Program-made: the position numbers and the translations under genes | NCBI GenBank assembly: GCA_040954595.2 | Contig: CM082578.2 | Span: 14,228,304 to 14,292,303 of the forward strand | Reading direction: 5' to 3' | Length of the DNA stretch: 64,000 bases | Source: Balanoglossus misakiensis | Lineage: Eukaryota > Animalia > Hemichordata | In this document: piece by piece, positions 2,580 to 55,100 of the stretch | How the letters are laid out: every line of letters begins with the position of its first letter | How positions within the stretch are numbered: the first letter of the stretch is position 1 | The notes under the pieces: generated by a model | Seen by the model: the letters and a program-made list of their open reading frames with translations, nothing else | What the model was told of the DNA's origin: nothing | Database searches by the model: none

Positions 2580-5500
2580 CTATCCAGTATTTTCAGAGTT
2601 CCTTTCCGCCTTTGCCTGTATTTTCCCATAGAGGTCATATCTCCTGTGATTCCAGCACGGTAGCTGCGTGCGAACTGTCTGTAGGTAGTCCAGATCAATG
2701 TCAGCAACACAGACGTCCACTCCTTCGTGACAACAAGCTATGATACATCCCCAGGGATCAACTACCTGTTAGGTTGAATCAGAAGCATGGACTGTAGAAT
2801 GTTTACTTTGAATGAAAAAATACCAATTTTGTGGAATCTTGCAATGTATAAAACATCCTCTGCAAAGTATGGGTACCTGTAACAGTTAGAAGCTGATGAC
2901 CTGACAGGATTTTCTATCCAGAAACAGACTTGTTGAGTTTTCACGTGAGGGATTTCTACATGTAAATCAATCAAGTTCACATCATGTCAGTGTAACACTG
3001 GCTTTGCACCAAGTGCTTAGAATTTTCTTTGGTACCTGATCTGGGGGAGTACTGGTATTAAACCAATCAGCCAACAATTTCCTTTGATCAGCTGACAATC
3101 AGACTTGGAAATGGAAACTTTCAGACATACGATGCCAAGAACTAAAGTTAAACCTTTTCAACCGCTGACTTGATCTTCAGGATTTCTGTCAGTCAACGTC
3201 ATTAATAAAAGATACCTGTGCAACATGAGCAAATCTCTTCCAAACTGCAGGATTACAGGATTGTGCAATCTGACAACTACCACCATCCTGTCTGTTAAAC
3301 ATCGAAGGAAGGTTGATGACATGTTAGAATAACAGTGTTTCTTTCATAAAGGGGAAGAGGTACAGTCCCCCCTACAGTGGCATCCTGGCTGAAACACTGT
3401 ACTAGTAATAAGATTGCAGATAAAGTACAAATTTCAAGTACACACACCATGGAGTGACCATAGGATGTTCTCTTTTCGTGGTGACGTCCGGTCTGTGCAG
3501 CAGCTATAACATAACACTGCATCTCAATCGCTCGACTTCTCAGAAGAACCTGCAATGGATGGGTGTGAGAAACACTCATCAGACCTCAAAATTTTACTGA
3601 ATAATATGAAATGTATCAGTAGTATCCGATACACTGTGTGCCTCGTAATAGACCAGAAGCACAGTGCATAAAACTGAGAATATCTCATTCCACAAATGGA
3701 TAGGACAGACAGATGATAGAATACTTGACATTTAGTGTACATACACAGATGTAGTTTCAGGTACAAATGATACAAGACCTGTAATGTATCATGCATTGCA
3801 ATGAAAAGCAGGGACATCAACACCTAGGCTATCAGAACCACAGAAGACAAGTGTCTCACCTCCCAATGAGCTGCACCTGTTGTTGCAGTGAATGCTGAAG
3901 GGTAGGTCAGTATCTGTGCACCCTGGTGTGCTAGGGCTATCGACATCTCAGGAAAACGTAAATCATAACACTATTTTCAGTTCAGGAAATAAAACAATCA
4001 TGACAGTGCAAATGGGTAGAATTATTGATTCATTGTTTTTATCTGACTGCCCATCAATACTCAAAGCAACATGTGTACATAAACAGCTTTCAAAGGATAC
4101 AGTTGCCAGACCAATTTTTCCCACTGGAGTGTCCACTGGTGGAATAATTTCATCGCCTGGAATGGTGAAATCACTTTCTTTGAGTCTGACTTGTCCTTTG
4201 ATGTCAATGTCAAATAAATGTGTTTTATTGTAGACGGCAACAATGTCCCCATGACTATTCACTACAATATGAGAATTGTACAGTCGTTGACTGTCTGCAT
4301 TTTCATCCTGAAACGACATGAGACAAAACATTCAGTGTTCATGATGTGTTTGTTTTTCATTTCTTCATTTTTGATACTTTACACAGAGCATTTGAGTGAA
4401 CTAAAACTACAGTGTTGTATATCATAATTTTACAACTCACTGTTGCAATATATTTACCAAAATAACACATCTTTCTTACCAATTTCACAACTTTTAACCA
4501 TAATTTCAACCTTGCTCTTGCATTTGGTTTCATTACTTTACCTGCGGCATTTATTTCACAATGGTTTGATGTTACTGTTTTTAATTAATCACATTATGCA
4601 AGAGAACACTTTTTTAATTTCCATTTTACAAATGCTCTCTAGAGGGCGGCCTGCAAGACAAGTAAAAGTTGAAATTATTTAATATAAACTCTTACTTTGT
4701 GATGCATCCCACCAAGGGACAACCACATGTCATTTTGTTTGGCCAATGCTTTCATGGTTTGCATGATATGTCCATCTAAGGTTTCTGCAAGCTTCATAGT
4801 TTTCTCTCGACTGTCACCAACATAGTCAAAACATTCTGGAAAGAAGGCCATCTAAAAGAGGAAATAAAAAATAAAGGGGAACATCTTCAACTCTCATGTC
4901 CATGCCCACCTCATGTACAATTTACACATATTTCTTTTAGTCAATGTCTGCTGACCATGACTCGACATTATGTATACCTCTAGCAGATGAAAAATAACTT
5001 TTATACATAAAAACAAAGCTAAATGGTACATGTACCTGCATTCTATTATTAGCTTGTGACTATGATATCATTACTATAAATAATGCAAACAATCCTTTTC
5101 ACAGATGGACACCATGGGATATTTTCAATTTTTCGTTTGATTTTTATACATTTGAGTATAAAAATGCTATTAAACATTTTTCATGGTGCAGGTACACTGC
5201 ATTCTTTAGTTGTGGTCGTTCATGGTTCTAGACAAGCTCTGTCTCACCTTGGCACCTTTCTGCTTAGCCTCAGTGATCAACTCCCTGCAGGTTTGTAAAT
5301 TGGCATCTTTGTCAGCCTTACAGTTCAACTGACACACAGCTATGGTGTTCCTATTAGCAGACATCACTGACATCTTAACAACACTATTTGAAAACAGCCT
5401 CCGTGTGAGGCTGATACTAGCTCTAATTCCTACTTGCAGAGTGAGACACCGGTGATACATCAAAACGTCAGCGTCTGTCATTGTAAAAAAAATGAACAAA

Positions 5501-5621
5501 AGCGTTATTATCTATTTATCAAACATGACATGACTATTTCATGTTATTCGGGCAAACAAAGTACATTATAACCTGAGCATCCATGAAGTATTGACCGAAA
5601 AAGAGCTGAACAGCACACCAT
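2580..5621 (-). CDS. NIT1: Nitrilase-like protein 1 (deaminated glutathione amidase), about 330 aa
   Basis: Minus-strand exons 5621-5573, 5429-5248, 4851-4696, 4307-4101, 3970-3860, 3549-3448 and 2765-2580 (993 nt). Motifs include [14 protein letters not shown] (catalytic Glu), YNKTHLFD (catalytic Lys), CYDLRFPE (catalytic Cys), [36 protein letters not shown] and HRRYDLYG. Exon 1 is less certain because its donor (gttata) is weak. Confidence 0.92.
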
Positions 5622-17800: not shown

Positions 17801-20800
17801 GCCAGCAAATTATGCATTACATGTACATGTGACTTTGTAGGCAAAATATGCATTTTAGGGGTCACCTTTCCAGCTTATGAAATACAAAGCCAAAAATAAT
17901 AATGAAGATAACTGCTGAAGACATTCAGTTCAAACTTTCAGCATTTTTGAGTGAATATTCACTGCAAACTACTGCAGAATTATGGAGACCTTAGAAGTGT
18001 ATACACTGAAGTTTGTTCTCGAACACATTCTTCCTCCATATTGCTTGCCCAGAACCTAACCCACATGGTTTTCATTTTCACTCATGTAGAAAAATTGAAA
18101 GATTATCACAGTCCAAGACCTCACTGGAACAAGAAAAAATGGAACTCGACGCCAAAGTCAGAAATTTGAAGTAAGTATTTTGTAAATCAGGGTGGGGATA
18201 ACATCAGTTCAGTCACTTTCTAGAAATTACAAAGCATCCAATCTTGGACAGACTGTAGTAGAATCTACTTGACCCGGCTGCCCTTTGCAATTTATGTTGT
18301 TGGTCCTTACAAGAACACCGAAAAGAAAGAGATTTTCTGGGTTTCTTTAGCAGCTGTTACAAGGAATTTGCGGTTTGCTAAGACATGTATACTTTTTGTA
18401 CCTCTTTTAATTGACCCTTCAATTGCTCATTTGTAGTTACAAACTGACAGAAGAAACAGAGAAAGCTAACAGTGCTGAAGCATTGTTGGAGAAAGCCAAA
18501 GAACAACTGGAAAGAAAGGAGCAACAGTATATGCAGTGAGTTATTCAGTCATGTGACTTGAACCAACCAATCAAGTATAAATGTACAGATTTGAGGACTT
18601 GCATTGCGTCATAATTTGGAAATGATACTGCTGAAGTTGAGCCTGTCACTCTTTGTTTGTTTGTTTGTTTGCTTGTTTGTTTTTGAGCCACACTAACATC
18701 AAACATCTGATGTCATCTCTCTTTCAGAGAGCTTGAAGCCAGGCAGAAAGTTGAATTGTCATCAAGAACTTTGCAGATGGAGCTACGTAATGCACTCAAC
18801 TCAATCAAACAGGTATGTCCTCAGTCACAAATCATAAACAGAACCAAAGCATCTTCCAGTATTATAGGAACCAGTTTACTTGAAGATGTGCCAAGGTCTT
18901 TGTATTGTTTTAAAATCATAACATATGTTTTTGTTGCCTTTTTGTATCACAGCTTGAGGAGGACAAGGATGAAATCCGCAAAGAACTGGTGCAGACTCGC
19001 AGTGCCAAAGACATTCAGGAACAATTCAACCAAGACCACATCCAAGTACATGAAGCTCTCCAACAGGTACGAAGTTACTTACTGTGTTTTCACTGGACTT
19101 TGTTCCTGTTGTCACATACTAGAATAAGCTGTTGTGAAACAAATTTCAGATATATCAAAATTTAGAAGTTGTGGTTGCAATCAGTTTTTACACTGCAGAC
19201 TACACCACTGCTTGGTAAAATAGTGAGAGAAAAATAAATATTTTTCTGACCAGTCCTTTAAAAACCTTTGTTTTCGGCTTTGCTGCAGTCTAAACTCTGA
19301 CTAGCTTTCTGAACACTCACTCAATGCAATACTTATTACAAGGCACACAAGATCTTACTCTGATTTTGTTTGTGTCAATTGACCAGTTGACTTCACCCTT
19401 TGCAATTAAAATTTCTAGCTTAGCACTGTCTAACGCCTCATTTCCGTTTTTTGTCCCCTTTTTCCTGTGCATTGCTATCTTTATGCTTGTGATTTTATAC
19501 AGGAAGTTGAGCAGTTTGAAGCTGAAAAGGTATCATTGTAATATCACAAGATTTTCAATGTATTCACTGTGTTGTTTAGTTCAGTCAAGTCCATACATGT
19601 ATATACAAATTAAAACTTGGCGTTCATTGTTAATTTCTAGGTACTGGTAAACTATTTTTATATTAAATTCTGTGTAATGATGAGTGTGTTCTATAATGCA
19701 AATGGCAGAACTAATATGTCTATATGTTTATAGCTACTGACCTCTGCATGTTGTTCTAAGGTAGACACAAGTTGTGTTAATATGTAATGGTGGTCTTCAT
19801 TCTTAACAATCATTTTGCATGTTGTTCTTAATGGCTTTACTGTATGTACAATAAAGAAATCAAGTTTCTGGTGCTGTTATATTCCAATATGCGAAAACTG
19901 TTCTCTTGAAATCCACTCAGTCTGGTTTTGACTTCATAGAATATCTTTGGGATGATAAAATCAGCAATTGATAAGTTCTGATATTTTGTTTCATTTGTTG
20001 GAGTATTGCAGTACAACGTCTTTTTCAAAAAGGATTTGCATCAATGTTGTATCCAGTAACTGATATCCTGTTGTATTTCAATTGCATGCAATTAGTCTAA
20101 TAATGTTTGATTTATCTATATTGGTATATTTTATGCATTGATACTTGGGAATATCATTTTGCCTCTTTTTTATTGATTTCAGGCAGAAATATTCAGTCGA
20201 CTGGAGACGGCAGATGAAAATCGCAAATATGCATTCGATCAGAACGACCGTCTCAAAGCTGAACTCTATGGACTCAAAGTGAGTTTACTGCAAATTAAAT
20301 GTGTGATCATCACTGTGTATTCATATGCTTTTCTTGTTTAATAGGGGAGTGTGTAATCTCCAAAGACAAACTTTGATGTTCAATTCAGGTGCAGAATATA
20401 CTTGAAGCTGGATATCAAGTTCTTCCAGATAGTTGAATAACTTGATGATCGCTGGGATATGTGAGTGGCTGTGATTCTTTGACACAAATTTTTTTCACTC
20501 CCGTCAGATGGAACTGGAAAGAGTGCGTTCACGCTACAAGGATGACCAGGGAATGCTGGCTGTGGAGAACGAAGAACTCAACAACCGAATAGAAGAACTC
20601 AAAGGTGAAATTGTAAGTAACATCTGGTATACTGCAGTCAGTCCGTGTGTGTCTGTGTGTGTGGATGTCAGTACATGATACTGAATCAGCTGTCCATATT
20701 GCATGATATTATATCTATCATCCTATCTGTACAGAGACTAAATGAAGAGGCCTTGGCCCATGCCACCATGACATACAACGCTCATCTGGGCGCCGCCAAA

Positions 20801-29591: not shown

Positions 29592-31383
29592 ATGTATATA
29601 CCGTTTTCCTAAGATAAACTCCTTTTGTACAATGTCATTTCTCAATGCAATATTTAAATCATCAACCCTCATTGATGTAAATTAAATTTTAATTCACCTT
29701 ATGTATACTTAATGCTTATTAATAATATATATATACATTAAAATATTACAAATATGTGTAAAGCTCTTACTATTTATTGAGGGACCTCTAAATTTGTATT
29801 ACATTTCCTGATACAACACAGAATCAGTATTGGTGAATTTGTTTTATTACTATATTAATCGAGATGAATTTTCAGAGCTCCAAATGACTACTCATTATTT
29901 ATATACTTAATGCAAAATACTATTCATCCGTCCTTTCAAATCTAACAATTTTATTTTTTACCTGGAAAGGTGCTTTTTATTGTCAGGCAGGATTTGACAT
30001 TGGTGGCAGATTTGCACACATAATAAAATCATCAATTGCCAATTAAAGAAGGCCAATATCACTTAATATATCTCCATATATTGGCAACAGGTTCACAAAT
30101 CCAACGTATTTGGGAGGTTTCCACTTTCCTATTTAAATTTTCTTATATAAAATTATTGATGCCTTTATGGAGAAAACTACAATTCTGTACTTAGAAATCC
30201 ATTGGCAAACAATATTATTTACAACATCATACGTACTTTAACTTGAAATTTAATTTTGTTTTGGATCCATTGGTGCTATGGTGTATCTCTGTGTTTATTT
30301 TAAGGTATACATACAGTCACCTTTATGAATCTAATTACAGATACCATGGAAACAGAAGGTTAGCCAATCACAAGATTCTCACTTGGTTGACTGTGTACCT
30401 TCAATACAGGACATTTTTTGTTTCACCCATACTTCTATCCATTCTCGAGTTTTTACAGGAAAAATTCTAAATCGTCTGTTGGCCTCTTGAATAGGCTGTG
30501 CAGAGTATTTTAAAAAATTAAACAATATTCAATACCATGTTAACAAGTCTCTTGTGTATATGCTTGTGTGTCTGATTTAACCCCTCTGTAAGGCCGGCTA
30601 TGACAAAGAAATATATTTTTTGATGATACCAGCACAACGTCTTGCAGAAAGAATGTGCCCCATGACACGTAAATCTGAATATTCCCAGGGCTTCCGCGTT
30701 CCCCAAGTCCACATCTGGTGGTGCAAATGACCTTTGCCACCAAGAACCATTAAATCCATGACTGGTATCGTTGGGGACAGCCCCTTCCCGTTCCCTCCAG
30801 GAATAAACATGGCATGGTAGAATTTTTTTTTAGGATTCGGTTGCAAAGCGCGCTTAAAGTATGTCTGGATTCTCTCAGACTACACACAGAGAGATATATT
30901 TGCGAAATCCTGGTTCCTACGCCTATGCCGTTGGGGAATGTAAAGATTATTGACCTTTATTGGGATTTCGTTCACATTATTTTTCTAACCCTTTTTGTTC
31001 TGTTTTTCTCTTAAGATTTTTTTTTACTTCAATCTACTATCGTTTAATATAATGTGTATAGCAATCGTTGCTCGTATCGAAAGTTTTAAAGATACATATT
31101 TAGCGTTGAAAACAATCATTTTTTTCCGATGTTTTTATTGGACTCGAAACAAAATGGTGACGAAAAGAAGTCATTAAGTACAGTGCGGTAATCGGTGTTT
31201 TCAATGCTCTTGGGTACAATATTTCATCCATTGACTTGGGCGAGCTTTATAGTTTAGATCATTTTGAAGGACTATTCATGAATTGCGATGTATAAGTATA
31301 AAGTCTAATTCTTCCAAAACTTAAAAATTTCAAAGCATATTACGTACACATTTGAGTACCACTTTGGCAGTAAGTAGCACCTG

Positions 31384-31422
31384 CCCCCCCCCCCCCCCCC
31401 CCCCCCGGTTCCTACGCCTATG
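31384..31422. repeat. Poly-C tract followed by a repeated 16-mer; probable terminus of a small interspersed repeat
   Basis: About 22 C residues then GGTTCCTACGCCTATG; the same 16-mer also occurs at 30912-30927. Confidence 0.55.
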
Positions 31423-31656: not shown

Positions 31657-31716
31657 GATACAAAGTTATCTGATACATTTGTCCTGTACATGAGATCCGG
31701 GACTTTGCCTATAAAA
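31657..31716 (+). promoter_or_regulatory. Core promoter of the BRICHOS-peptide gene: GATA site, NF-kB-like site and TATA box
   Basis: TATAAAA at 31710-31716, about 70 bp before the ATG. GGGACTTTGCC at 31699-31709 (canonical kB site GGGACTTTCC). TTATCT (WGATAR on the minus strand) at about 31666-31671, flanked by two TGATAC. Confidence 0.6.
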
Positions 31717-31783: not shown

Positions 31784-33502
31784 ATGGCGATACTTGTTCA
31801 ACTGATCATCGTAAGCCTGGCGGTGACTTCGATTAGTTCAGCCCCGTCTCCTATAACAAACGTACGTATACACTTGCTTTGAACGATCTACAGTTAAGAC
31901 TAGTCGTGGTTTTTTGTCTTTCGCGACCATAAATGTGGTTAGAGCTGACAATGCTAAAATATTCATTCTCGCTTTCAATTAAGACACAGTCAAAGCTAGT
32001 GGTCAATACCTGACTGATACAAAATATGCATGTACCTGAAGGAGTCTGAACAGAGTCTGTAAAACAGCGATCCGGACGACATACGCAAACAGGAGGTTTC
32101 ATTTTATCCCAGTGGCATTTTTTGCGACCATCCGTTTCTAACATTCATGTACATTTCTGATGCAGGGAACGTGGCATCATCTGACTGTGATGATCGACGG
32201 TGATGAGACGATAGTAACAGTGGCAGTGAATGAAGACAAAGGTATAGAGATGTACAAGACGGAAGACCCAACCCCTGCACTAATTGTCAAGGATTTCAAC
32301 ACCGTAAGTTGAAGATTTGGTATTTTCATCTTTACTATAGTGATACCAACGTTGTGCTCTTGACTTGAGCAAAACTACCCTTACTGCCATAACCTGTCCC
32401 GGGGAGTGGTTTGGCATACTTCGTCATGTACTTGGGATCTTGTCTGACACGAAAAGTCTAGATAGCACAAAGAATAAACCAAACTTTTACCAGGATGATG
32501 CGATATATAATATTTATAAAAGTCAACTTATCCGCTTATTAAACATTCTGATTCTTATTTTTGTAGGGAGTGGAAGCTATCGTCTCAGATGATAGTGAAT
32601 TTTGTTACGTCACGCCCCTGGATAGTAGCAGAAACACAGGGCCGTCTGCATTGAAGTCTGAAGTCGAAAAAAGCGAGGTAAGATCATGATGTTCTCTTTT
32701 TATGTTGGGTATAACCGATCGGGGTTTGTAACGTAACTATACTTCAGACGCACCGTCTTACATGATATTGGGTACCACTACTTGTAACTTCTCAGAAAGA
32801 GGCAATTTCGGTTATTTTAGTTTAAAATATTTTTTCTGGGCCTGTAGGCCTAACACCGATTTTTTTCTATTATGTATAGCATGGTACGTTTTAGTAAATC
32901 CATGTTTAGAAATATTTAAAACGTCAGATTTCACTGACATTTTGGTCATAGTAACCTTTGTCAAAATATCAAAGAATGACATGTACCTTTTCCACAGGGC
33001 GAGATTCAAACGGTGGAAGACGAAACTGACGAGCTGTATTCCACTGGCGGATATCCGATCGTGCGCAAACTCGTCTTGGGTGAAACAATCGCTGAGAAAT
33101 GTGACGGCAGAGATACTTTCTGGCTGATCAGAGTTCCAGGCGAAAGTGGTGGTATGTACACGTACATCTCTAACTCAAATTGACACCCAAAAAAGTATAC
33201 GTCGATGTAAAATTTGTCGACTTTTCACAGTACGGAGCAGAGTGCGTGTCTAAACAGCTGACCAGGGGCCAACTCCTATGGTCCATACTTACCTACTTAT
33301 TAGAAAAATTACCTGTCGCACTGTTAACTTTATTGTGAGTATTTCAGTTAACTCAAGATTTCTCTGTTTCTCTCCCCACCCTCTCGTTTTAGGACGTACC
33401 AAACGTGACGTCGACTGTCGTCATGTATTAGTGTGCAGTGTCGAGTATCAGAATGGTCAGTGGGTTCGAAGCTGCAGATACGAACTCAAGTGCTCATTCT
33501 AA
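31784..33502 (+). CDS. Secreted BRICHOS-domain precursor with a furin-cleaved C-terminal 4-Cys beta-hairpin peptide (196 aa)
   Basis: Exons 31784-31861, 32166-32303, 32567-32677, 32998-33151 and 33393-33502, all GT-AG with intron phases 0,0,0,1. Protein: MAILVQLIIVSLAVTSISSAPSPITN / GTWHHLTVMIDGDETIVTVAVNEDKGIEMYKTEDPTPALIVKDFNT / GVEAIVSDDSEFCYVTPLDSSRNTGPSALKSEVEKSE / GEIQTVEDETDELYSTGGYPIVRKLVLGETIAEKCDGRDTFWLIRVPGESG / GRTKR-DVDCRHVLVCSVEYQNGQWVRSCRYELKCSF*. BRICHOS hallmarks are IVKDFNTG (conserved Asp), CYVTPL and LGETIAEKCDGRDTFWL (the two conserved Cys). The start has a strong Kozak context (accATGg). Confidence 0.85.
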
Positions 33503-36500
33503 GTCAAGATAAGCAAGCCTAAAACGAACGGTTACGTTAGGTAAACCGTTGAAATTATAGTGTGATTTGTATTACGGCATGCGGTCCATTATCACTACTG
33601 GGTCAAGAAATTAAATAAGAAATTTCACAAAATCCGGATGCATGAAACTTTCTGAATGAATAATTCTAGATACATTACATCATTAGTGAAGGAGAGTTCA
33701 TAATTAAGCATAGATTTTGCAAAATACGTTTCGTGAGCAATCATTTTTTCTTTTATCTTTCTTTGTTTAATGTTCTAGTATGTTGTGGAATATGGGTAGA
33801 TTTAATCAGAAAACAGCAGTAATCATTTTTAGGCAGTATTGTACCGATTTTGGTGGTGAAATTGTCACACCACTTTTGTATTGATTTTTTTTCCAGATTA
33901 CAATTCTGTATTTCTGCCAGATGTTGCAACTGGCGATTCTAGAACTTTTGTATTCTTGCAGCTGCAAAGTGTCATTAGAAATAAAACAATCATGACTGTA
34001 CTCAGTGCGTCTTGTGCGGAAATTCATCTCTGTATCTCCCTCCTCTCCCCCACTCTAAATGTTTCATATGTTCTTGGAAAAGTCACGAATTTGAACTTAT
34101 GTGCAATCTGATTAAAATCAGATGTAGTTAGGCGCCAATTTTACTTTTGCTGATTCCATGCTGTTCTGTTCGGGGGCCAGTGAAGTGTACGCCCAAGAAC
34201 AGCCAACACAGAGAACAGAACAATCAAAACTACTACCAGCGCCTAACTCTATATCTGATTTAGGAATGATCATTTCCTCAGTCTGGGCAGATGTCGCTTA
34301 GATTGTTCATCCCTATTCATGGAAATCAGGCAATTTAGGGTGACCAATGTGACTGAATCACCACCACGTGATCTCCGCAAATACTCCAAAGCACCAGATT
34401 TTTAAAATTTTTGTTCTTCTCTATTCCTGGGTAAATTAGATATCAGATACAACTTACTTTTTTTCTCTCTAAACAGTTTCAGGAAATTCTTCTGCATGGT
34501 GCAGCACATTCTCCATGCTCTTGTGGGACAGGATAAAGGTGCCCAAAGAGTCTTTCCATCCACAATGACCCGAAGTTTGAGAAGAACCAAATTGTAAACT
34601 TACACGTGTGTTGCCAAATACCAACACAATAATAGTCATATAGACAGCATACACACTTTGTGTTAAGAAATCTTTTTTTAAAAAAATATTCAAATTTGCA
34701 TAGAATTACAGGTTTTTCATGATGAAATATACATTGAATGTACATGTTTTATCCAAACATTGTTTTTATCAAATGATCTGTGGAGGGTTATCCACGTCCA
34801 TAATGCCGACACTCGCAACATATGGTTAGGCGACTACCATGAAACTCTCTGCCCACTTTGAAGCGTCACAACAGAGAGGATTCTGGTCACTTTCCGATTT
34901 GCAACCGACGTAGGTTCTGTGTTTTCCTAGCAACACACAGGTCATGTCACAAGAGGATTGATGGAGCATGGTCACACGTTCTCCCACAAGTCGGCATTCT
35001 GTACACAGCAGCAAAGCAGACAAAATTCCACATGGCAGCTAGGAGACAGCACACACAAACAGAAGATGCCAGGACCGCACTTGGCACATCACGATGGCAG
35101 TCATGGTAGCATTATTGTTGTACAGCACACTCCAGGAGTTGAGAGACACACACGGGCAACACACCGCGGAAACTGACGAGTCACACACAGACAGAAACAA
35201 CTTGGTGAGGACATTTCACTGTTTAATATGCATTGAGTTACGATATCTCAGTAGTCGACGATATATTCAAATTCACTACCACAATTGATACAATCTTGAA
35301 GCCAATTCATAAAGGAAATTCTACTTGGTGGCGTAGACATTGTTATTAAAATACAGTAATAAGTCTATTACAGTCAATTCATAAATCACCATCTATCACC
35401 TTGAAAATTTGAGGAAAGTTCTCAGTACAATTAGCAGGAGGCATACAAATAGTCTCTTTCTACTGTATACATGTACTTCTGTTTAAGCGCAGTTAGTGAC
35501 AGCTCCAGGCTCTAGTTGCGACTTTCCCACTGATACTAAATCTTTGGTAGAACTATTCTACTACGAGACAAATATGGATGGTCATAAAACATCATACATC
35601 TCAGAAAGTTCTTGCGCCAAAATTGGCAGAGACTACAGACATGCGTTAAAATTACAGTATTCGGGAAGAGGAAAGGTGAGAAATAAAGACATGAAATTCA
35701 TCTACTGTTGCAGGTTTCTAATTTTTTCACACTTCAAAAACAAACTTTTTCTGTATTCCAAAATGTTACTTTTTTACTGAAATGACAGTTTACATTGATA
35801 AAATGACTCTCTAAAAAAATTAAATCAGTTCTACAATTCCAATGCTCTTCAACAAAGATTTGCTCAAAAAAAATTTGGAATGACTTTGGTTGACCTTGAG
35901 AAAAAAAGGCATTTCTCATTTCATATTTGAAATGTTCAGTGTTCGCCACATTATACATGATGGGAGACATCTTGATTTGATATTATAACATGTGCAAAGA
36001 GGTCTGTGCACTGTTTGGTTTCATTTTCAGGCTCTGAAATCAGCTAGTGATGAAAAATGGCAGTCGGGTCAGTTCCGACATTTTTCGAAGATTTGTGCTT
36101 GACACACACCTTAGGCAGTTTTGTACAATTTCACAAAATCCACATCAACCCTCATAAGTTAGTGCACACTGCAACAGAACAGGTGATCTTCATACGACCA
36201 TATTAAATTCATTTAAAATGTCTCACAAGCGGGACTGATCAATCAGAATTATCATATTTTGATGCATCAAAACATAATTGATGGTAAACATGAACTTGGT
36301 CTTGCCCATCTTTTAGTGAGAGAGGCTTGTTCAAATTGCTTGAGGAAAGAAAGAAATTTCAGAGTCTCATAAGGCTCATCATTTTGGGACATGGCTTAAT
36401 AATAAACCACAAATTATAAAATGTTGCCCAGCAACAACAATGCTACCATTTTCAGTTCATTTTTATATAGACCAGATCACAATTGGAGGAGTTTCCAGCA

Positions 36501-38969: not shown

Positions 38970-41399
38970 TTATGCCGCACCGCGTACAACAATCACAACT
39001 AAATGATCCTCCTTCGATGGTTCTTGTCCCAGGCTTGGTGCGACCCGCAACAGGTATTTATGAGAGAATTCACAAGGTGGAAAAGCATGCAGAACACCAA
39101 CTTCACGTTCCTTTGGTTTACTTGATGCTCCTACAGGCAAACTGATCACACCCGCAGCTTGTTTCTGTTGCAGATAGGAGACCAAGTTCCGCAGAGGTCG
39201 CATCTGTGTTTGATTCGGTTCCTCCACATTTTGTTGGGATTCGGGCAAAGCAAGCAGAAGACAATATCCCGAGCTACCAGCAGACGAAATGCGGCGAGTC
39301 ACTTCCTCCAGCTTGGGCTGATCCAAGCGCAGGCGCTGAGTAATTCGTAAGACATGCGACTCACTGGAAGCAGAATCACTCAACAGTGTATCAACAACAG
39401 TCGGATCACCACCAATCAAATGCATTCGAGTTGCAAACGCACTATTTTTCAACACCACAGATCCATGCCAAGCAACCGGAAAACAATCTCCAAGATCAGT
39501 CAAGGTGTCAACTTCCTCAACCCTATCTCTATCCCGAATCTTTTTGTCGTGTTTGCCGCGATGTTTGGATTTGTCGTTGATTTTGGAATCCTCTTCGTAC
39601 TTGTCAAGTCTGTCTTTGTCAGACTTGGCGTACTGATCACTACTGTTTGAGCGGCGACGCTTCAGCCGTGGCTCCCTTGGTGATATTTCGTGTTTGTTGG
39701 GGGGAGTTCTGGGAGGTGACACAAGCCGGGAATCCGATCGGTATTTGTCTGGTGGTGAATAGTCACGATCGTGGATTGGTTCAACAGAACGCCTTTTGCG
39801 CACATCCCTAGTCCTTGATGGCGATGCACTTCTGCCTCTTGGTGGCGTTCCACGTTTTCGACGGTCGCTACTTCCCATGTCACGAGTCCTTGGAGGAACA
39901 TCATTTATGCGACGTCTGTCCCAGTCTGGCTCACCATGTCGGTTCATACCACCATGGTTGCGTTCCACAGGCCATTCGTCCCTGCGTGGTGGCGGCGGCG
40001 GTGGTGGCAGTGAATAACCGCCGGGATTTGCGTTCGCCCATAGGTCCATCTCCCCATCTCTGTAATGCGGTGGCGGGGTAAGTCCCCTCTCTGGGTTTCG
40101 GCGATAATGCTCAGTCAGCATGGCATCATGGTGTTGTCTGTGCGGCGAATATTGAGGTACAGGATATGCTTTCACCGTAGACTCTGGGTCAGCGAAATCG
40201 ACACGCAATCGTCTGTCTGCTCCTCCCAGTGGAAATCCTCTCATTTGTGAACAAGCAGCTTGAGCTGCATCAAGGGAATCATACAACACATACGCATGAT
40301 TATCACCCTTGATGTAGTCAATTTTCCGAATGGCACCAAAACGGTCAAACTCACGTTCAAGAACAGCAAGTGACGTCCAGGGACCCAAACCTCCTACCCA
40401 CAATCGAGTTGTTGGAACAGGTTTTCCATAGCCAATTTTACAAATATTCCTACCAATATATTGCCCTGACATTGCAACTTTGGCTTTGTGAGCCATATCA
40501 AGATTCATGAATTTCACAAAAGCATATGCATTACCCTGACCTCTCATGGGTCGTTTCACATCAACATCTTCCACGATACCAAAACGGTCAAACATCCGTC
40601 GCAGATCTGACTCAAGAACATTTGCTTCAAGGTTTCCAACAAACAGCGTACGTGTAGCTCTTTGGTCATCTTCTGGCAGCATGTGTTGTTCACGTGGAGT
40701 GTAGTATTCAGTGGCATTGGCATATGTTGTACGTCTGTTGTCGTATGCTTGGTACGTACGATCACGTGGTGTCATCTCGCGAGTCAAACTCCCATGTCTG
40801 ACAGCCCTCCTTGAAGATGCAGCAGTGTGTGTCGAGTAATTAGATTCTGGACTTAAACTCCTTTGTTTCAATCTACCATGGTCTTGTGGTAAATAAACTG
40901 GCGTTATATCCACAGTGCGATCGAACAACACAAGCCTCCCTGTTTTGGCACGTCTTGCTTCACGCGCATCATCTGTGACCCTAAAACTCACATAAGCCAC
41001 CCTCTCATCCCCGGCTGTGTAAGTCAAACGCACGTTTACATCGCCAAATTTTTTGAATTCGTGATACAACGCGTCTTTGATTGCCATGTCGGATACATGC
41101 GAGCTAAAATTCGACACTTTGAGTGTCCTATACTCTTGTTTGTTGGTTGCTGCTCGTTCAGGGTATCCGCTGTCGCGATCGCGGTCAAATCCGTCCCTAT
41201 CGTTTCGAAACCTCGAATCACGTTTTTCTCTCTTTTCCAATTTTCCATGGTCAGCACGACTGAATTTGCCCCTACCTTCACGCCTCTCGCGGTCGCTCTC
41301 AGGGGTGATGCGATCTCTTGCACTCCTTTCATGCATGTCTGACGTCCCTTTAGATCTCTTTGATTTTGAATTTGAGTTCCTATCTTGCTGACGTTTCAT
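38970..41399 (-). CDS. RBM15: RNA-binding protein 15 / spenito (3 RRMs + SPOC; m6A writer-complex adaptor), uninterrupted ORF, 809 aa
   Basis: RRM1 (YRTLKVSNF...ERVAYVSF), RRM2 (PEDDQRATRTLFVGNL...YAFVKFMNLDMAHKAKVAMSG), RRM3 (PTTRLWVGGLGPWTSLAVLEREFDRFGAI...RLRVDFA) and SPOC (AWHGSVVLKNSAF...LRITQRLRLDQPKL...LRNLVSYLQQKQAAGVISLP...LHAFPPCEFS). The first in-frame ATG is at 41399 (MKRQQDR); the ORF-track start at 41456 is a GTG. Confidence 0.96.
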   Translation of the reverse strand: MKRQQDRNSNSKSKRSKGTSDMHERSARDRITPESDRERREGRGKFSRADHGKLEKREKRDSRFRNDRDGFDRDRDSGYPERAATNKQEYRTLKVSNFSSHVSDMAIKDALYHEFKKFGDVNVRLTYTAGDERVAYVSFRVTDDAREARRAKTGRLVLFDRTVDITPVYLPQDHGRLKQRSLSPESNYSTHTAASSRRAVRHGSLTREMTPRDRTYQAYDNRRTTYANATEYYTPREQHMLPEDDQRATRTLFVGNLEANVLESDLRRMFDRFGIVEDVDVKRPMRGQGNAYAFVKFMNLDMAHKAKVAMSGQYIGRNICKIGYGKPVPTTRLWVGGLGPWTSLAVLEREFDRFGAIRKIDYIKGDNHAYVLYDSLDAAQAACSQMRGFPLGGADRRLRVDFADPESTVKAYPVPQYSPHRQHHDAMLTEHYRRNPERGLTPPPHYRDGEMDLWANANPGGYSLPPPPPPPRRDEWPVERNHGGMNRHGEPDWDRRRINDVPPRTRDMGSSDRRKRGTPPRGRSASPSRTRDVRKRRSVEPIHDRDYSPPDKYRSDSRLVSPPRTPPNKHEISPREPRLKRRRSNSSDQYAKSDKDRLDKYEEDSKINDKSKHRGKHDKKIRDRDRVEEVDTLTDLGDCFPVAWHGSVVLKNSAFATRMHLIGGDPTVVDTLLSDSASSESHVLRITQRLRLDQPKLEEVTRRISSAGSSGYCLLLALPESQQNVEEPNQTQMRPLRNLVSYLQQKQAAGVISLPVGASSKPKEREVGVLHAFPPCEFSHKYLLRVAPSLGQEPSKEDHLVVIVVRGAA

Positions 41400-49123
<7,724 letters not shown>

Positions 49124-52100
49124 GAAAAGAAGGCTGTGTGAAGAAAAAAATATATATAGTTAGAAACTGTTATACAATATGACGTTTATGTCAACTTGCT
49201 TGGAAAGTATACGAGTTTTGGAAGCAATGTCACATGTGGTGGTCCCCATGAAGGACAAGTTTCTGAAGTGACAGAATCATTCTGGAAATTGGGAATCCAT
49301 GCACAGCATTGCACGTGTCCTTAGATATCATGTATAGTATATTGCAGCCATAACAAGGCTGTTGTAACTCTCATTTCAATGAATATCTTGATTAATTGAC
49401 ATGAACATTTTTTTCTTTTGGGTTGAGATATTGTCAGAACAAAGTGACCCTTTGCATGTATGGCATGATTTGTCAATAGGTCAAGAAATACGGACAGTGA
49501 ACTCTGATTTTATTAGCTGTCATTATAATAACGAGAGTTTTTGTCAGTTGTGAACTTGTAAAAATCAATCAAGATTGTTAGACAGGTTATAGCTTGACTG
49601 TCCTTGATTTTACTACTGAGCTGAGTTTGAGATGCTCAGGCATTGAAGAATAAGAAGAATCATTGCTACAAAATTACTAATATAGAGGGTGTTATGATCA
49701 GAACAAACAATTGTCAGATATTTTCCATGATGTGCCCTATCAATGCATATAATTGTAATACCAGTACCTATCAACATGTTTTGTCTAAATTGACAATGGA
49801 ATTTATAATCTGAAGAAATGGGGAAAAATTATAGCAATAGCATTGAATTAAAGTGACTTAAACAAAACAAAAATCGTTGATATATCTGTGATTCAGGTTT
49901 CTAGATTCTGCTGAAAATGGATTCACATGTAAATACGGAACTATTGTGTTGCATTGTAAGGATGTTTCTTTTCAGAGTTCATATTATTTTTTTATTCTTT
50001 TATCACATTTTTAGAGACACTTGACTGAGAAGTCAATTCTGATATTATTAGAACTTTTTTTTGCGTTTTTCAAATATTTTTTCTTTCAAATGCTGATAAT
50101 TAGGGGTGTTATCTATTAAATGTACATCTTTTCTATCATCTGAATGTAACTGTAAACTTGGAGAGAGAGAGGAAACCATTTTGATTTTACAGGAAAAGTA
50201 ATAAATAGTGTTCTAGTGTATTCAAGACCTAGTCTGTTGCAAGTTGTGAATGCATTGTGTGTTAGGGTGACTGATACTTGAAAATCTCCATGAGCGCCCT
50301 CTCGAGTTAAACATTGGCATTCCTCAGGATTCACGTTTTATAACATTTTTACAGCCAGAATCTTGCATGTCTGAGAAAACTTTATTGGTTTTACAGAACT
50401 GAGCTTTGACAAATATTTACTCAGTGTAAAGGTATATGTACAAATATCACATTGGGAAAAAAGATAATTCACAAAGTCAAAGAGGTCATGTTGCAGCTTC
50501 ATCAGAATTAGCCATTAAAACCATGAAGTTTGGGTAATCATTATTCACAAATAAATACAAACCCATGTGTATTTGATACCGAGCAGAAGACAGTCATTTT
50601 CCCACTAACGGGATGAACTCATCAGAGTATACTTGGATGTAGTTTCTACTATGATCTCTCCATATTAGAGTGAGTCTAGGCAAAGCTGAGGAACAAATAT
50701 TTTTCATTCTCAAGTGGTTCTTTTATAAACAGCTTATGTACAAAATTATTTGTTCCAAAAAACACAAAACAGTACATGTTCATCCTTGTTGAGTTTTTGG
50801 CACCAAATCATGCCAGTATTATGATGCCAAACACACTAGTCTTCTGTTTCCAGCCAGCATTCATCCAATGCTTACTGCCAGTTCATCTCCAAACATTTAC
50901 ACTCCTTCTCACTCGTCCCCAAATGGTCCGTCCATTCAGATCTTTCAAATATCCCTGGATCTTCCACTCTGTTAAGTTTTACTTTATAAACATGATGTAC
51001 AGAGCCATGAAGACACAGCTTGATGCCACTGCCAGATGTAACCGTGTACCAATAACTGCAGCTGTAAAAAAACGAGTAAACATCTTCAGTTAGAAAACAG
51101 CACTTCAGTATTGATACTATCACTGCCTCCATTTATACATAAATGGAACATTTTCAACATAAGATCACAAGACACCAACAGCAAAATACAGCTTGAAATA
51201 GTTTCGAAACACTTGGGGAGCCAGGGAAATGCTGTCATCACTACAATGTACACAGGCCTGCACCTATGATTCAGGCAAACCAAAATCACACATCACCTTA
51301 CCTTTATAAAATACACCCAAGAATCCTTTTTTCTCAGATAAAAACCATTGCTTCAGTCTTGGTACTCTTTTCATATATGCACATGTACAAACAACTAATA
51401 GACCAACGATTATCAGGCCGTCAAATGAATAAACTGCAGTAAAAAGGTAAGAATGAAAAGCAACATGTCAGGCACTGGTACATCAGTTCGTTTCTCGATT
51501 GTCAATACAATACATGTACTTTCAAGTGATGTAGTAAAGGGTAGCTCCATGGTGAAACACATTGGTGTTATGACAACCTTTCAAAAGGATTTCACTGATG
51601 TCAACTCAGCCCGTCAACTTTGATCAGATACATGCACAACCTCTCATATGTACTGACTCAACTGAGATGTACGTTTCTACATGAAACAAACTTGTCTTCA
51701 GGAAGCTTCAAGTTGAATAAACTCTTTCAAATTGATTTTAAAACAAGACCTACCATTAGTCATGTTGAGCAGGGCAGACACGCAATCGCTATCTATACAT
51801 AAGGATTTTTTAACCGATGAACGTCGCGTTAATAGTTTAAAATCAACTATTTCAACGACACAAAATTGTGACCGTGTATGTTTACGTGGAACCGGAAGTA
51901 AATGTGGCAGCGGTGTTTTTCGGACTTCTGGGATAGGGTCGCAATATTTAAATTAGGGAGAGGTCACCTTATGTGTCAGGTGACCTGTGCGATTTGTTTT
52001 CATGAGCTATATCAGTCTCAGGCAGGCAACGCAGCTGTGGTGTGTAGCAAGCGTATGATTTCCGCCTTCTTTGCAGGATAAGAGTCCTATTTCTTGCTCG

Positions 52101-52182
52101 TAACTTCTCTTTGCACACAGGCAAATCACCCTTACATGTTGTTCCTCTGTCGAAGCCTAGCTGAGAAGCGGACGAACGTTGG

Positions 52183-55100
52183 ATGATGGATGTATTTGTG
52201 GCGAAATACGACTACGAGAAAGAGAGGGACGATGTACTTAGTTTCAAGAAAGGTGACAAGTTTGAAATCACGCACAAACCCGATGATAAATGGTGGGCCG
52301 CAAAAAGAATCGGCGATGGATCCCGTGGATATGTACCAGCACTTTATTTAGAGGTACTCACAGTATTATTCATGCATATAGAATATATCGTGTCTGTTAA
52401 CGTTACGCCGAAATAAGGCAGTTTTTCACGGTGGTGTGTGAACGCGTAATACAGTACATACACTGACCTCCTCACTCAATATTCAATGACCACCCGGCCA
52501 AACAATGTAGTAGGTACACCCTTTCTTATCCGATCACGACATTAAAAATCGCATTGTACTGCACTTCTTTGCAGCCTTCGAGAGACAGAGTCATTGGCAA
52601 GCTTATACCTGAAGAAATAAGAAAATCGGTAGGTCAAGAATCCACCTAAACACTCGTTGATATGCTATATAACATTTGCTGCGGGTCCTCCCACATTTGG
52701 GACTGTTCATGGCTACGCCTCGAGCCTACATCTACTGTATGCTCGACTTTATTTGGGAATATACAGTTTATGCTACGGACCCGCAGCAAGTGACAATACT
52801 ATAGTTATCATTTTTGGTGTAATACCTAATGTATTAGTTCACAGACCCTGTCTCACTCCAGGGTCTATGGATTAGTATTGAAATGTATAAATAGATATTT
52901 ATAGTGGTGCAAATATGATTGTACTGACATAATGTGTGGGGCAGGTGCTAGTTAATTTGTTTGGTGTTATCATATTGTTTATTAATTAGATGACACACAA
53001 AACCAGTAGCAATTCTTTGCGAGTTCCCTTGTGTTGTATTAAAGAAAGTATTTGCTTGCACTATACAGTATACGGCAGGAGTTTGTTTGGAATACAAATT
53101 ATATTTGAATATATGACTTAATAATGTGTAAGTTTGACTTTCACATTTGAAATATAGCATGGATAATATTTACGAGTAATTATATAAAAAAGACAACCTC
53201 ATTCTGAATAAAAAGATAGTCAAAATTGAAAGAGACGTATCATGCAGAATTATAAATTTGGTGCAGGTGTTACATTTTTGTCGTCAGTCTCTTGTAAGAG
53301 GAAGCGCGTGAATGTTTTATGGCAAGGAAACATTGCAGTACAATGCATACAGTCAGTCTCTTTGCACATCCATATGTCAGTCATTCCAACTGAAGACAAC
53401 TGCAGTTTATAGAGAAATTTTAATGGTTCTTTGTAAATGTTAATAATATTTCCCACAGACCACATTCAATACACTACACAGTTAATTGTTTATCATCTGT
53501 TGCATTGTTTGTCAGCGTACTGTTAGATAATTTCTGAGTCGTTGAATTAGCATTGGTATGCTGACTTATGCTGGTTTCATCTGCATATGTTACACAAGAT
53601 AAAATATACCACATTTCACACAATGGACTGTATTATTTAATTATTAATGCAGATGTGATATGATGTTTCAAAAATTATAATTTGGAAATGAATGTGCACA
53701 AATTTATCCAAAAATCTCCTTTTTATTCAGGGCATCAGAGATTCCTGGATAAATGTGTGCTTATTCTCTTTATACAGTGACGTGATATTGATCTGCTACA
53801 GTCAAATATTCAATTCACATTTCTGTGTATTATTTATTTTACCTAAATAGAAGAAAACATTCTTGATTATGTGCAGCATGATAAATTGGTGTAAAATGTA
53901 CATTGTAACTTGATCTGGCCTTTAGAAATGGTGTTTTGTTATTCATGATTATGTTGCAGTTACCTGTAATGGCATCTTTAAAGAGAAATTTGGCATAGAT
54001 AGACGTGGAAAAGAGATTAAGAATGAATAATGGATGGCATTCTCCAATCTGTGAGCAGTATAATTTTAGAATGCATAGGAAATAATCTGTGATATATGAA
54101 AATATACAGTTGAAGGGGAAATATTACACTCCTATTGTGATGATAACATGTCTGTCATTTTTGGCTTTGTGAAACCAGAATGTTCCTGGGTATGAAAATT
54201 GTATTACTGGGAATTTTAATTTTATGAGACTTATGATGCAGTAAGAGAAATCACAGCTGCATGCCCACTGCATGTTTTGATATTCATTTTGTAAAGTTTA
54301 ATCTTCTGTAATCGAAGTCACAAAAAGCAAATCCTTGTACCTCAGGTCTTGGAGATAAACTCTCCATTTCAGAATGGCTACTGTGCACGCATAAACTGAA
54401 TGCTGAACATTTCACATAATGCCCCCATAGTGAATTTCTCAGCAGGTAAACCTGTGTGTGGGTTCATTCTATTATATCGGTATTGGATTGTACAAATTAC
54501 TCATCAAAGTACATGTATCATTCTTTTTCGCCTAGTGACAGGAAGCCGTGAAAAGAATTTGCTGTGCCTTTCACAGGCGGTACTAGAACATAAAGACGTT
54601 CTTGTTGGTAGGGAACTGTGACCTGTCAATCATACTTCAGCCCAGTCAGTCACATGACGAGTGAAGTGAACACTCCAACGGTTACTCAATGGGTTCAGAA
54701 TGCAAACCAGTCTTGTGCAGTTTCAGAATTCAAATCGACTAGATCTGTTGGTATTTCTGTCACGTGGAATGAGGATCGCATGCATCAAAGTGGAGACAAC
54801 CGCCCACACCTTCTGGATGGCCAACTTCCCTTCAGCTAAAGTCAAGTAGTAGTTGTTGGCTAAGTGTTGTTTTTTTTCCACATTTATGAGACAAGAGTTT
54901 CAGAACTGTATTATCACATAACTGAATATATTTTGGGGAAAATGAACCCCTTTTCACTTGGGAAGTATTAAAACAATTGATGGGCACAGGCCGTACATGT
55001 TCCTGGCTGGCTTTGTTAGTCACAGTGGTGTTGGTGTTGACAAGAAATTCATGGCTCATGTGTCCTGCCTGGTCCTGCCATGTGACTGTTTTGCTGTTAT

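Follow-up and report, generated by a model that had tools for sequence, protein, structure and literature searches.

The window, a 64,000-nucleotide stretch of the Balanoglossus misakiensis contig CM082578.2, was scanned with Pfam in 270 frames, and the following genes were recognized around the predicted BRICHOS-type gene that is the subject of this analysis:

2583-5511, minus strand: carbon-nitrogen hydrolase exons of a nitrilase-family gene (Pfam)
7249-28720, plus strand: ankyrin, CCDC144C and DUF3496 exons of an ANKRD26-like gene (Pfam; gene name taken from the domains)
38970-41456, minus strand: long single-frame RRM-SPOC gene, RBM15-like (Pfam; gene name taken from the domains)
47141-48586, plus strand: protein kinase exons (Pfam)
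51267-51467, minus strand: DUF1242 exon (Pfam)
52165-52413, plus strand: SH3 exon (Pfam)

These neighbors are animal housekeeping genes, and none indicates an immune cluster. Inside the ANKRD26-like span, 18914-19162 (+) matched the Pfam BMF family (PF15185, 158-215) with an E-value of 1.8e-5 and 24.7 bits against a cut-off of 27. Elsewhere, one frame of a Cys-rich stretch at 34830-35250 (-) carries TGA at 35103, 35091, 34974 and 34944 before ending in TAG at 34929; we take its loose resemblance to a selenoprotein P tail to be a likely product of chance. Rfam returned no match at the gathering score anywhere in the window, including around this frame.

The BRICHOS-type gene itself was modeled in five exons, the last at 33393-33502 (+), with splicing predicted from the sequence:

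31710-31716, plus strand: TATA-like box lying 74 nt before the ATG (consensus match only)
31784-31861, plus strand: exon 1, coding part, residues 1-26, an uncharged hydrophobic N-terminus
32166-32303, plus strand: exon 2, residues 27-72, predicted to form four beta-strands that stop just short of Asp69, the candidate for the conserved aspartate of BRICHOS
32567-32677, plus strand: exon 3, residues 73-109, 111 nt, phase 0-0, with the first BRICHOS cysteine, Cys85
32998-33151, plus strand: exon 4, residues 110-161, ending in phase 1, with the second BRICHOS cysteine, Cys144
33395-33406, plus strand: RTKR, residues 162-165, predicted furin/proprotein-convertase site
33407-33499, plus strand: predicted mature 31-residue peptide, residues 166-196, with four Cys, a predicted beta-hairpin and a net charge of about zero
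33500-33502, plus strand: stop codon TAA, past which the frame runs for 13 codons without Cys
33610-33615, plus strand: ATTAAA, first possible polyadenylation signal (consensus match only)

Joined, the exons give 591 nt and 196 codons with no internal stop. All four introns are GT-AG, measure 241-320 nt and have phases 0, 0, 0 and 1, and GC content is 0.46-0.51 in the exons versus 0.34-0.40 in the introns. The acceptor at 33393 has pyrimidines at 12 of 14 positions, the most among the 17 candidate acceptors listed. Hydropathy predicts a signal peptide of about 19-20 residues (the top 11-residue window, starting at residue 3, scores 2.8), and the pro-region that follows (residues 21-161) has a net charge of -17. 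Upstream of the gene, a 16-base direct repeat occurs at 30912-30927 and 31407-31422 (+); about 23 C in a row stand before the second copy, and the arrangement resembles the terminus of a small interspersed element.

Translation of 33407-33499 (+) reproduced exactly the 31-residue peptide that the first-pass annotation had placed here, with RTKR directly before it and TAA directly after; the label mature depends on both the splice and the cleavage being as predicted. The furin consensus is R-X-K/R-R. Dibasic sites are also described upstream of other BRICHOS peptides (PMC10745061, PMC6265681, PMC9410094). We considered whether the peptide might be the truncated form of a longer Cys-rich one and rejected this, as no in-frame Cys follows the stop.

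The peptide had further been read as symmetric about Asn16-Gly17, and this register (i+j=33) pairs V2-F31, C4-C29, H6-L27, L8-Y25, C10-C23, V12-R21 and Y14-W19 in a single alternation. Five of these seven pairs are hydrophobic on both sides, namely the five originally named, the exceptions being H6-L27 and V12-R21. The cysteines are spaced C-x5-C-x12-C-x5-C. The mean hydropathy of the two faces is +1.26 versus -1.58, so that a hydrophobic face lies opposite a polar face of balanced charge, and residues 6-12 form an aggregation hot spot on the AGGRESCAN scale. The near-zero charge was likewise confirmed: four basic side chains (R5, R21, R24 and K28) stand against four acidic ones (D1, D3, E13 and E26), plus H6, for a side-chain net of 0 and a calculated charge of -0.15 at pH 7 and -0.83 at pH 8.1.

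In a hairpin with a two-residue turn, these seven pairs would occupy the non-hydrogen-bonded sites, which favor disulfides and aromatic pairs, and Asn-Gly favors a type I' turn. AlphaFold2, run on the single sequence of the 35-residue last-exon product, agreed with the proposed geometry, with residues 3-15 and 18-30 of the peptide as strands and N16-G17 as the two residues of the turn (mean pLDDT 90.9; five models, 89.3-90.9); neither the disulfides nor the type of turn can be read from this output, which has no shuffled control. From the register, the cysteines would pair C1-C4/C2-C3 (C4-C29 and C10-C23) about a type I' turn. The same C1-C4/C2-C3 connectivity has been shown for alvinellacin (PMC4002450) and is described as the most probable one for HfBRI-25 (PMC10745061). 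Shuffling was used to gauge these patterns, which were picked post hoc with the sequence already known. Symmetric cysteines alone recurred in 13,752 of 200,000 peptide shuffles (6.9%, a weak result), symmetric cysteines with non-hydrogen-bonded parity in 1,736 of 200,000, and the two together with a central NG, GN, DG or GG turn in 7 of 200,000; at least five hydrophobic pairs at the best register were reached by 904 of 200,000. Considered together with the predicted fold, the shuffle results indicate that the modeled hairpin is more than chance, and we regard a cleaved, nested hairpin as the likely product of this gene. Foldseek with the predicted hairpin gave no match at E-values up to 0.001.

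We next consider the domain that would carry this peptide. Pfam PF04089 (BRICHOS) aligned to exon 4 over profile positions 58-91 of 91, with an E-value of 0.29 and 11.8 bits against a cut-off of 25; exons 2 and 3, scanned singly, gave no match to PF04089 at E-values up to 1. Features independent of this profile are more telling. In ITM2A, the residues described as conserved across the BRICHOS superfamily are D144, C160 and C219, followed by C244 of the C-terminal region (PMC2751770); here, D69, C85, C144 and C169 repeat the 16/59/25 spacing of ITM2A exactly, so that the conserved Asp and both conserved Cys are present. Only 24 of 200,000 precursor shuffles contained this pattern. In Bri2, the conserved Asp is reported as D148 (PMC9627735) and the mature peptide as residues 244-266 (PMC9714404), which puts the first mature residue 96 positions past the Asp, versus 97 here.

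Gene structure and layout point the same way. Exon 3 begins four residues past the conserved Asp, as does exon 4 of human SFTPC, and the exon layout of human ITM2B is similar. SFTPC exon 4 is given as 37 aa, the same size as exon 3 here (PMC2063649), and the introns of the alvinellacin gene are described as all phase 0 with the last in phase 1 (PMC4002450), matching the 0, 0, 0, 1 series of our model. Exon 2, modeled alone with AlphaFold, forms a four-strand meander that ends at the Asp (pLDDT 69), and a published BRI2 model likewise has four strands up to the Asp (PMC9714404). Structure searches with exon 2 yielded generic matches only (best Z 5.3): Foldseek had none at E-values up to 0.001, and VIA-align returned mostly propeller-blade-like generic matches, with BRICHOS absent among the 50 matches listed, which excludes nothing. 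The precursor follows the superfamily order of an N-terminal hydrophobic segment, a linker, the domain and a C-terminal beta-prone region, as described in PMC2751770 and PMC10182729, and it continues into a predicted convertase site and a predicted antiparallel hairpin with nested cysteines. The claim of a BRICHOS-type precursor is supported, and the pro-region is very likely that of a BRICHOS precursor.

Published descriptions list an antiparallel hairpin with nested cysteines, downstream of a convertase site, as common among BRICHOS proteins (PMC9714404, PMC10182729). A single worm is reported to have 13 BRICHOS peptides, from 18 to 91 residues long, including HfBRI-29, a two-disulfide hairpin of 29 residues, and HfBRI-75 and HfBRI-91, which lack a marked cationic character (PMC10745061); nicomicin measures 33 residues (PMC6265681), and further arenicin-like peptides are described in PMC9410094. 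Since published BRICHOS peptides already show each of them, the register, length and chaperone of the 31-residue peptide are unremarkable, and the evidence gives no ground for calling the nested hairpin or its length surprising. Nor does neutrality account for the need for a chaperone, as had been suggested, because cationic BRICHOS peptides have the same one. The observation was confirmed, and its interpretation was supported in part.

Searches for relatives were uniformly negative. Homologs of the last-exon frame, exon 2 and exon 4 were absent from a word-indexed search among longer proteins, for which such short queries are weak. HMMER over 1.84 billion representatives returned four matches at E-values up to 0.001, all of which were rejected, three of them looking like translated CRISPR arrays and one being a repeat-laden fragment. 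Entries resembling such arrays (P0002, P0003 and P0005) reached E-values as low as 1e-7 with short queries that contain Trp, through the repetition of weak matches. PDB sequences offered nothing under an E-value of 0.5, the ESM Atlas had a usable match for neither of two queries, and the two loci matched in metagenome contigs were both bacterial chance matches. These homolog nulls are weak evidence because all queries were only 31-51 residues long; with no relative found, the neutrality of the peptide may also be drift in one species. The 64 kb window holds no paralog of the gene. One candidate at 54247-54285 (-), a 13-residue likeness to the hairpin turn region in a stop-bounded frame, was rejected after 5 of 30 shuffled windows equaled it. 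The literature searched (titles, beginnings of abstracts and text passages, with subscription papers outside its scope) contained no neutral two-disulfide BRICHOS hairpin; similar peptides may be among the sequences presented only in figures or supplements of PMC10745061 (HfBRI-29, Fig. 1), PMC9410094 (alignments, Fig. S1) and PMC9627735 (tree, ESI).

What would such a peptide do? By family inference, the hairpin would rest against face A of the BRICHOS sheet while the precursor is being secreted, and this would prevent its aggregation. Bri23 is reported to bind the Bri2 BRICHOS domain with a KD of 9.5 uM, and the bound peptide is predicted to be a hairpin lying on face A (PMC11168071). A furin-type cut at RTKR would then free the hairpin from the domain, exposing two open strand edges and a hydrophobic face made up of V2, L8, V12, Y14, W19, Y25, L27 and F31 together with both predicted disulfides. 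In the last and weakest step, oligomers or fibrils of the freed peptide might form and cause microbes to be agglutinated or trapped, much as human alpha-defensin 6 (HD6) works once its propeptide has been cut. With no net charge, and hence no repulsion of the kind that separates cationic hairpins, self-association was judged the most likely mode. Self-assembly on microbial surfaces may be the main activity, a reading that we put forward tentatively and somewhat short of an even call.

A role in host defense seems somewhat probable. Against this explanation as a whole stand the lack of tandem copies in the window and of any kappa-B-like site between 30,122 and 43,626; the window has six such sites versus 5.33 expected, none of them near the BRICHOS-type gene. 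Preproalvinellacin, in contrast to the single copy here, is described as a tandem multigene family (PMC5431198). The known BRICHOS defense hairpins are described as cationic and membrane-permeabilizing (PMC13001179), a net-zero nicomicin fragment is reported to have no antibacterial activity (PMC6265681), and most BRICHOS families are listed with no known antimicrobial role (PMC10182729).

The strongest alternative is a conventional membrane-active BRICHOS antimicrobial peptide (AMP) that gains positive charge, either at acid pH through His6 and the carboxylates or by losing its D-V-D tail, and then forms arenicin-like dimer pores. The calculated charge does rise to +0.54 at pH 6 and +1.58 at pH 5, and removal of residues 1-3 would give a side-chain net of +2 and a calculated pI of 9.7, with both aspartates lying in an open tail outside the first disulfide. 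The amphipathic faces and the AMP-type precursor fit this reading, as do three Arg to one Lys, given the Arg bias described for the class (PMC13001179). The full peptide, however, is neutral to slightly negative at pH 7-8, the trimmed form would still be 28 residues long and weakly cationic, and the trimming is hypothetical. D-V is not known as a typical dipeptidyl-peptidase substrate. Overall, we find this explanation doubtful, though well worth keeping in view.

Less probable still is that the released BRICHOS domain is the effector, acting as an extracellular anti-amyloid chaperone, while the neutral hairpin serves as a plug that closes face A until cleavage. Bri2 BRICHOS fused to Bri23 is reported to lose most of its anti-amyloid activity (PMC11168071), the Bri2 domain is released to the extracellular space by shedding, and every BRICHOS domain studied is described as anti-amyloid (PMC10182729); a plug, moreover, would require a hydrophobic face and not a charge. 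Two disulfides and a register of 13 residues per strand nevertheless exceed the needs of a plug, and the pro-region falls below the Pfam cut-off on every exon, a divergence that gives no hint of a conserved role in client binding. We give a similarly low rank to a function outside defense, in which the peptide would be a receptor ligand or a component of matrix or mucus, like the little-understood mature peptides of OAF, BRICD5, chondromodulin or the uncharacterized group II. Its balanced charge and rigid surface would suit a specific binding partner, the gene is present in a single copy in the window amid housekeeping genes, and most of the 14 BRICHOS families are described as having no known physiological function (PMC10182729, PMC9627735). 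On the other hand, the mature regions of OAF, BRICD5, chondromodulin or group II are reported to be well conserved as a rule (PMC9714404, PMC2751770), whereas no relative of the 31-residue peptide was found, and the architecture here follows the AMP group. Finally, a wrong gene model or a decaying gene, whose peptide is never made in the predicted form, is very improbable: the predicted model combines an open frame across five exons, canonical splice sites, a TATA box and exon GC above intron GC with a closed, symmetric cysteine pattern and no in-frame Cys after the stop.

Self-assembly, pH dependence and action as a ligand, the three modes originally proposed, cannot be told apart from the sequence. 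Within the preferred reading of self-assembly, a bolder form would make this the first BRICHOS-chaperoned functional amyloid in invertebrate immunity, with a neutral hairpin, kept soluble by its cognate BRICHOS domain until furin releases it, forming salt-insensitive nets that trap microbes; we regard this as a long shot. If true, it would give the Bri2/ABri system a natural and beneficial counterpart and would provide a clean cognate pair in which to examine how a BRICHOS domain serves its native client. Were the peptide inactive or activated by acid, it would be just another member of an already diverse family. A neutral peptide together with its BRICHOS domain offers a cheap test of whether such cargo acts by assembly or by charge, and of whether the domain controls assembly. 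BRICHOS mining is described as the main source of new beta-hairpin antibiotics, a class characterized as short and cationic (PMC13001179). A precursor of the worm AMP type with a neutral 31-residue hairpin lies outside such filters and, on single exons, below the Pfam cut-off, so genes of this kind are probably under-counted.

The likeness to known assembling peptides is one of logic and not of fold. HD6, comparable in size to the predicted peptide, has about 32 residues, is stabilized by disulfides and is described as having a propeptide that blocks self-assembly until proteolysis (PMC4827351), and the big-defensin nanonets of the oyster offer salt-stable trapping in a marine invertebrate, with assembly at high salt (PMC6805989). 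Both, however, have defensin folds and no BRICHOS domain, and assembly has been shown for them, whereas for the 31-residue peptide it is proposed. Among BRICHOS proteins, OAF (Out at first) is similarly secreted, with a furin site, an extended antiparallel hairpin with nested cysteines and a predicted amyloid propensity (PMC9714404); its mature part, in contrast, is given as 70 residues with four disulfides and strong conservation, and Pfam found no match to the OAF family on any exon. The ITM2/BRI proteins share the 16/59/25 spacing (as in ITM2A), nearly the same distance from the Asp to the mature peptide (Bri2) and a convertase-released hairpin predicted on face A (Bri2/Bri23; PMC11168071). 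They differ in that they are described as type II membrane proteins whose peptide has 23 residues and one disulfide and whose C-terminal region is positive and conserved (PMC9714404, PMC2751770), whereas the signal peptide of the protein here looks cleavable and two disulfides are predicted.

The closest architecture is that of the polychaete BRICHOS-AMP precursors (arenicin, alvinellacin, capitellacin, abarenicin, HfBRI-25 and HfBRI-29). Like them, the precursor has a predicted signal peptide, an anionic pro-region with BRICHOS hallmarks (an anionic proregion is described for alvinellacin; PMC4002450), a dibasic site and a predicted C-terminal hairpin with two nested disulfides, and it is about 200 aa long (196 versus 202 for preproarenicin; PMC13001179), with the last intron in phase 1 and the others in phase 0. 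Unlike them, it has four introns and not five, no sequence match was found, the cysteine spacing departs from the C-x4-C-x4-C-x4-C of capitellacin (PMC10745061), and the peptide has a net charge of about zero where theirs are cationic. The contrast that the first-pass annotation drew with beta-hairpin AMPs is real. As described in PMC13001179, that class has a charge of +1 to +8, a length of 11-25 aa and an Arg bias. The predicted fold and its inferred disulfides do give a single disulfide-cyclized hairpin with Cys pairs at least three residues apart; the side-chain net charge of 0 and the length of 31 residues both fall outside the class, and the peptide should not be counted as a beta-hairpin AMP. 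What is unusual is the combination, in which a precursor of the worm AMP type, with its signal peptide, its pro-region of -17 and its 196 residues, is joined to a hairpin that fails the AMP definition. The novelty at this locus is an orphan, charge-neutral cargo carried by a predicted precursor of standard BRICHOS type.
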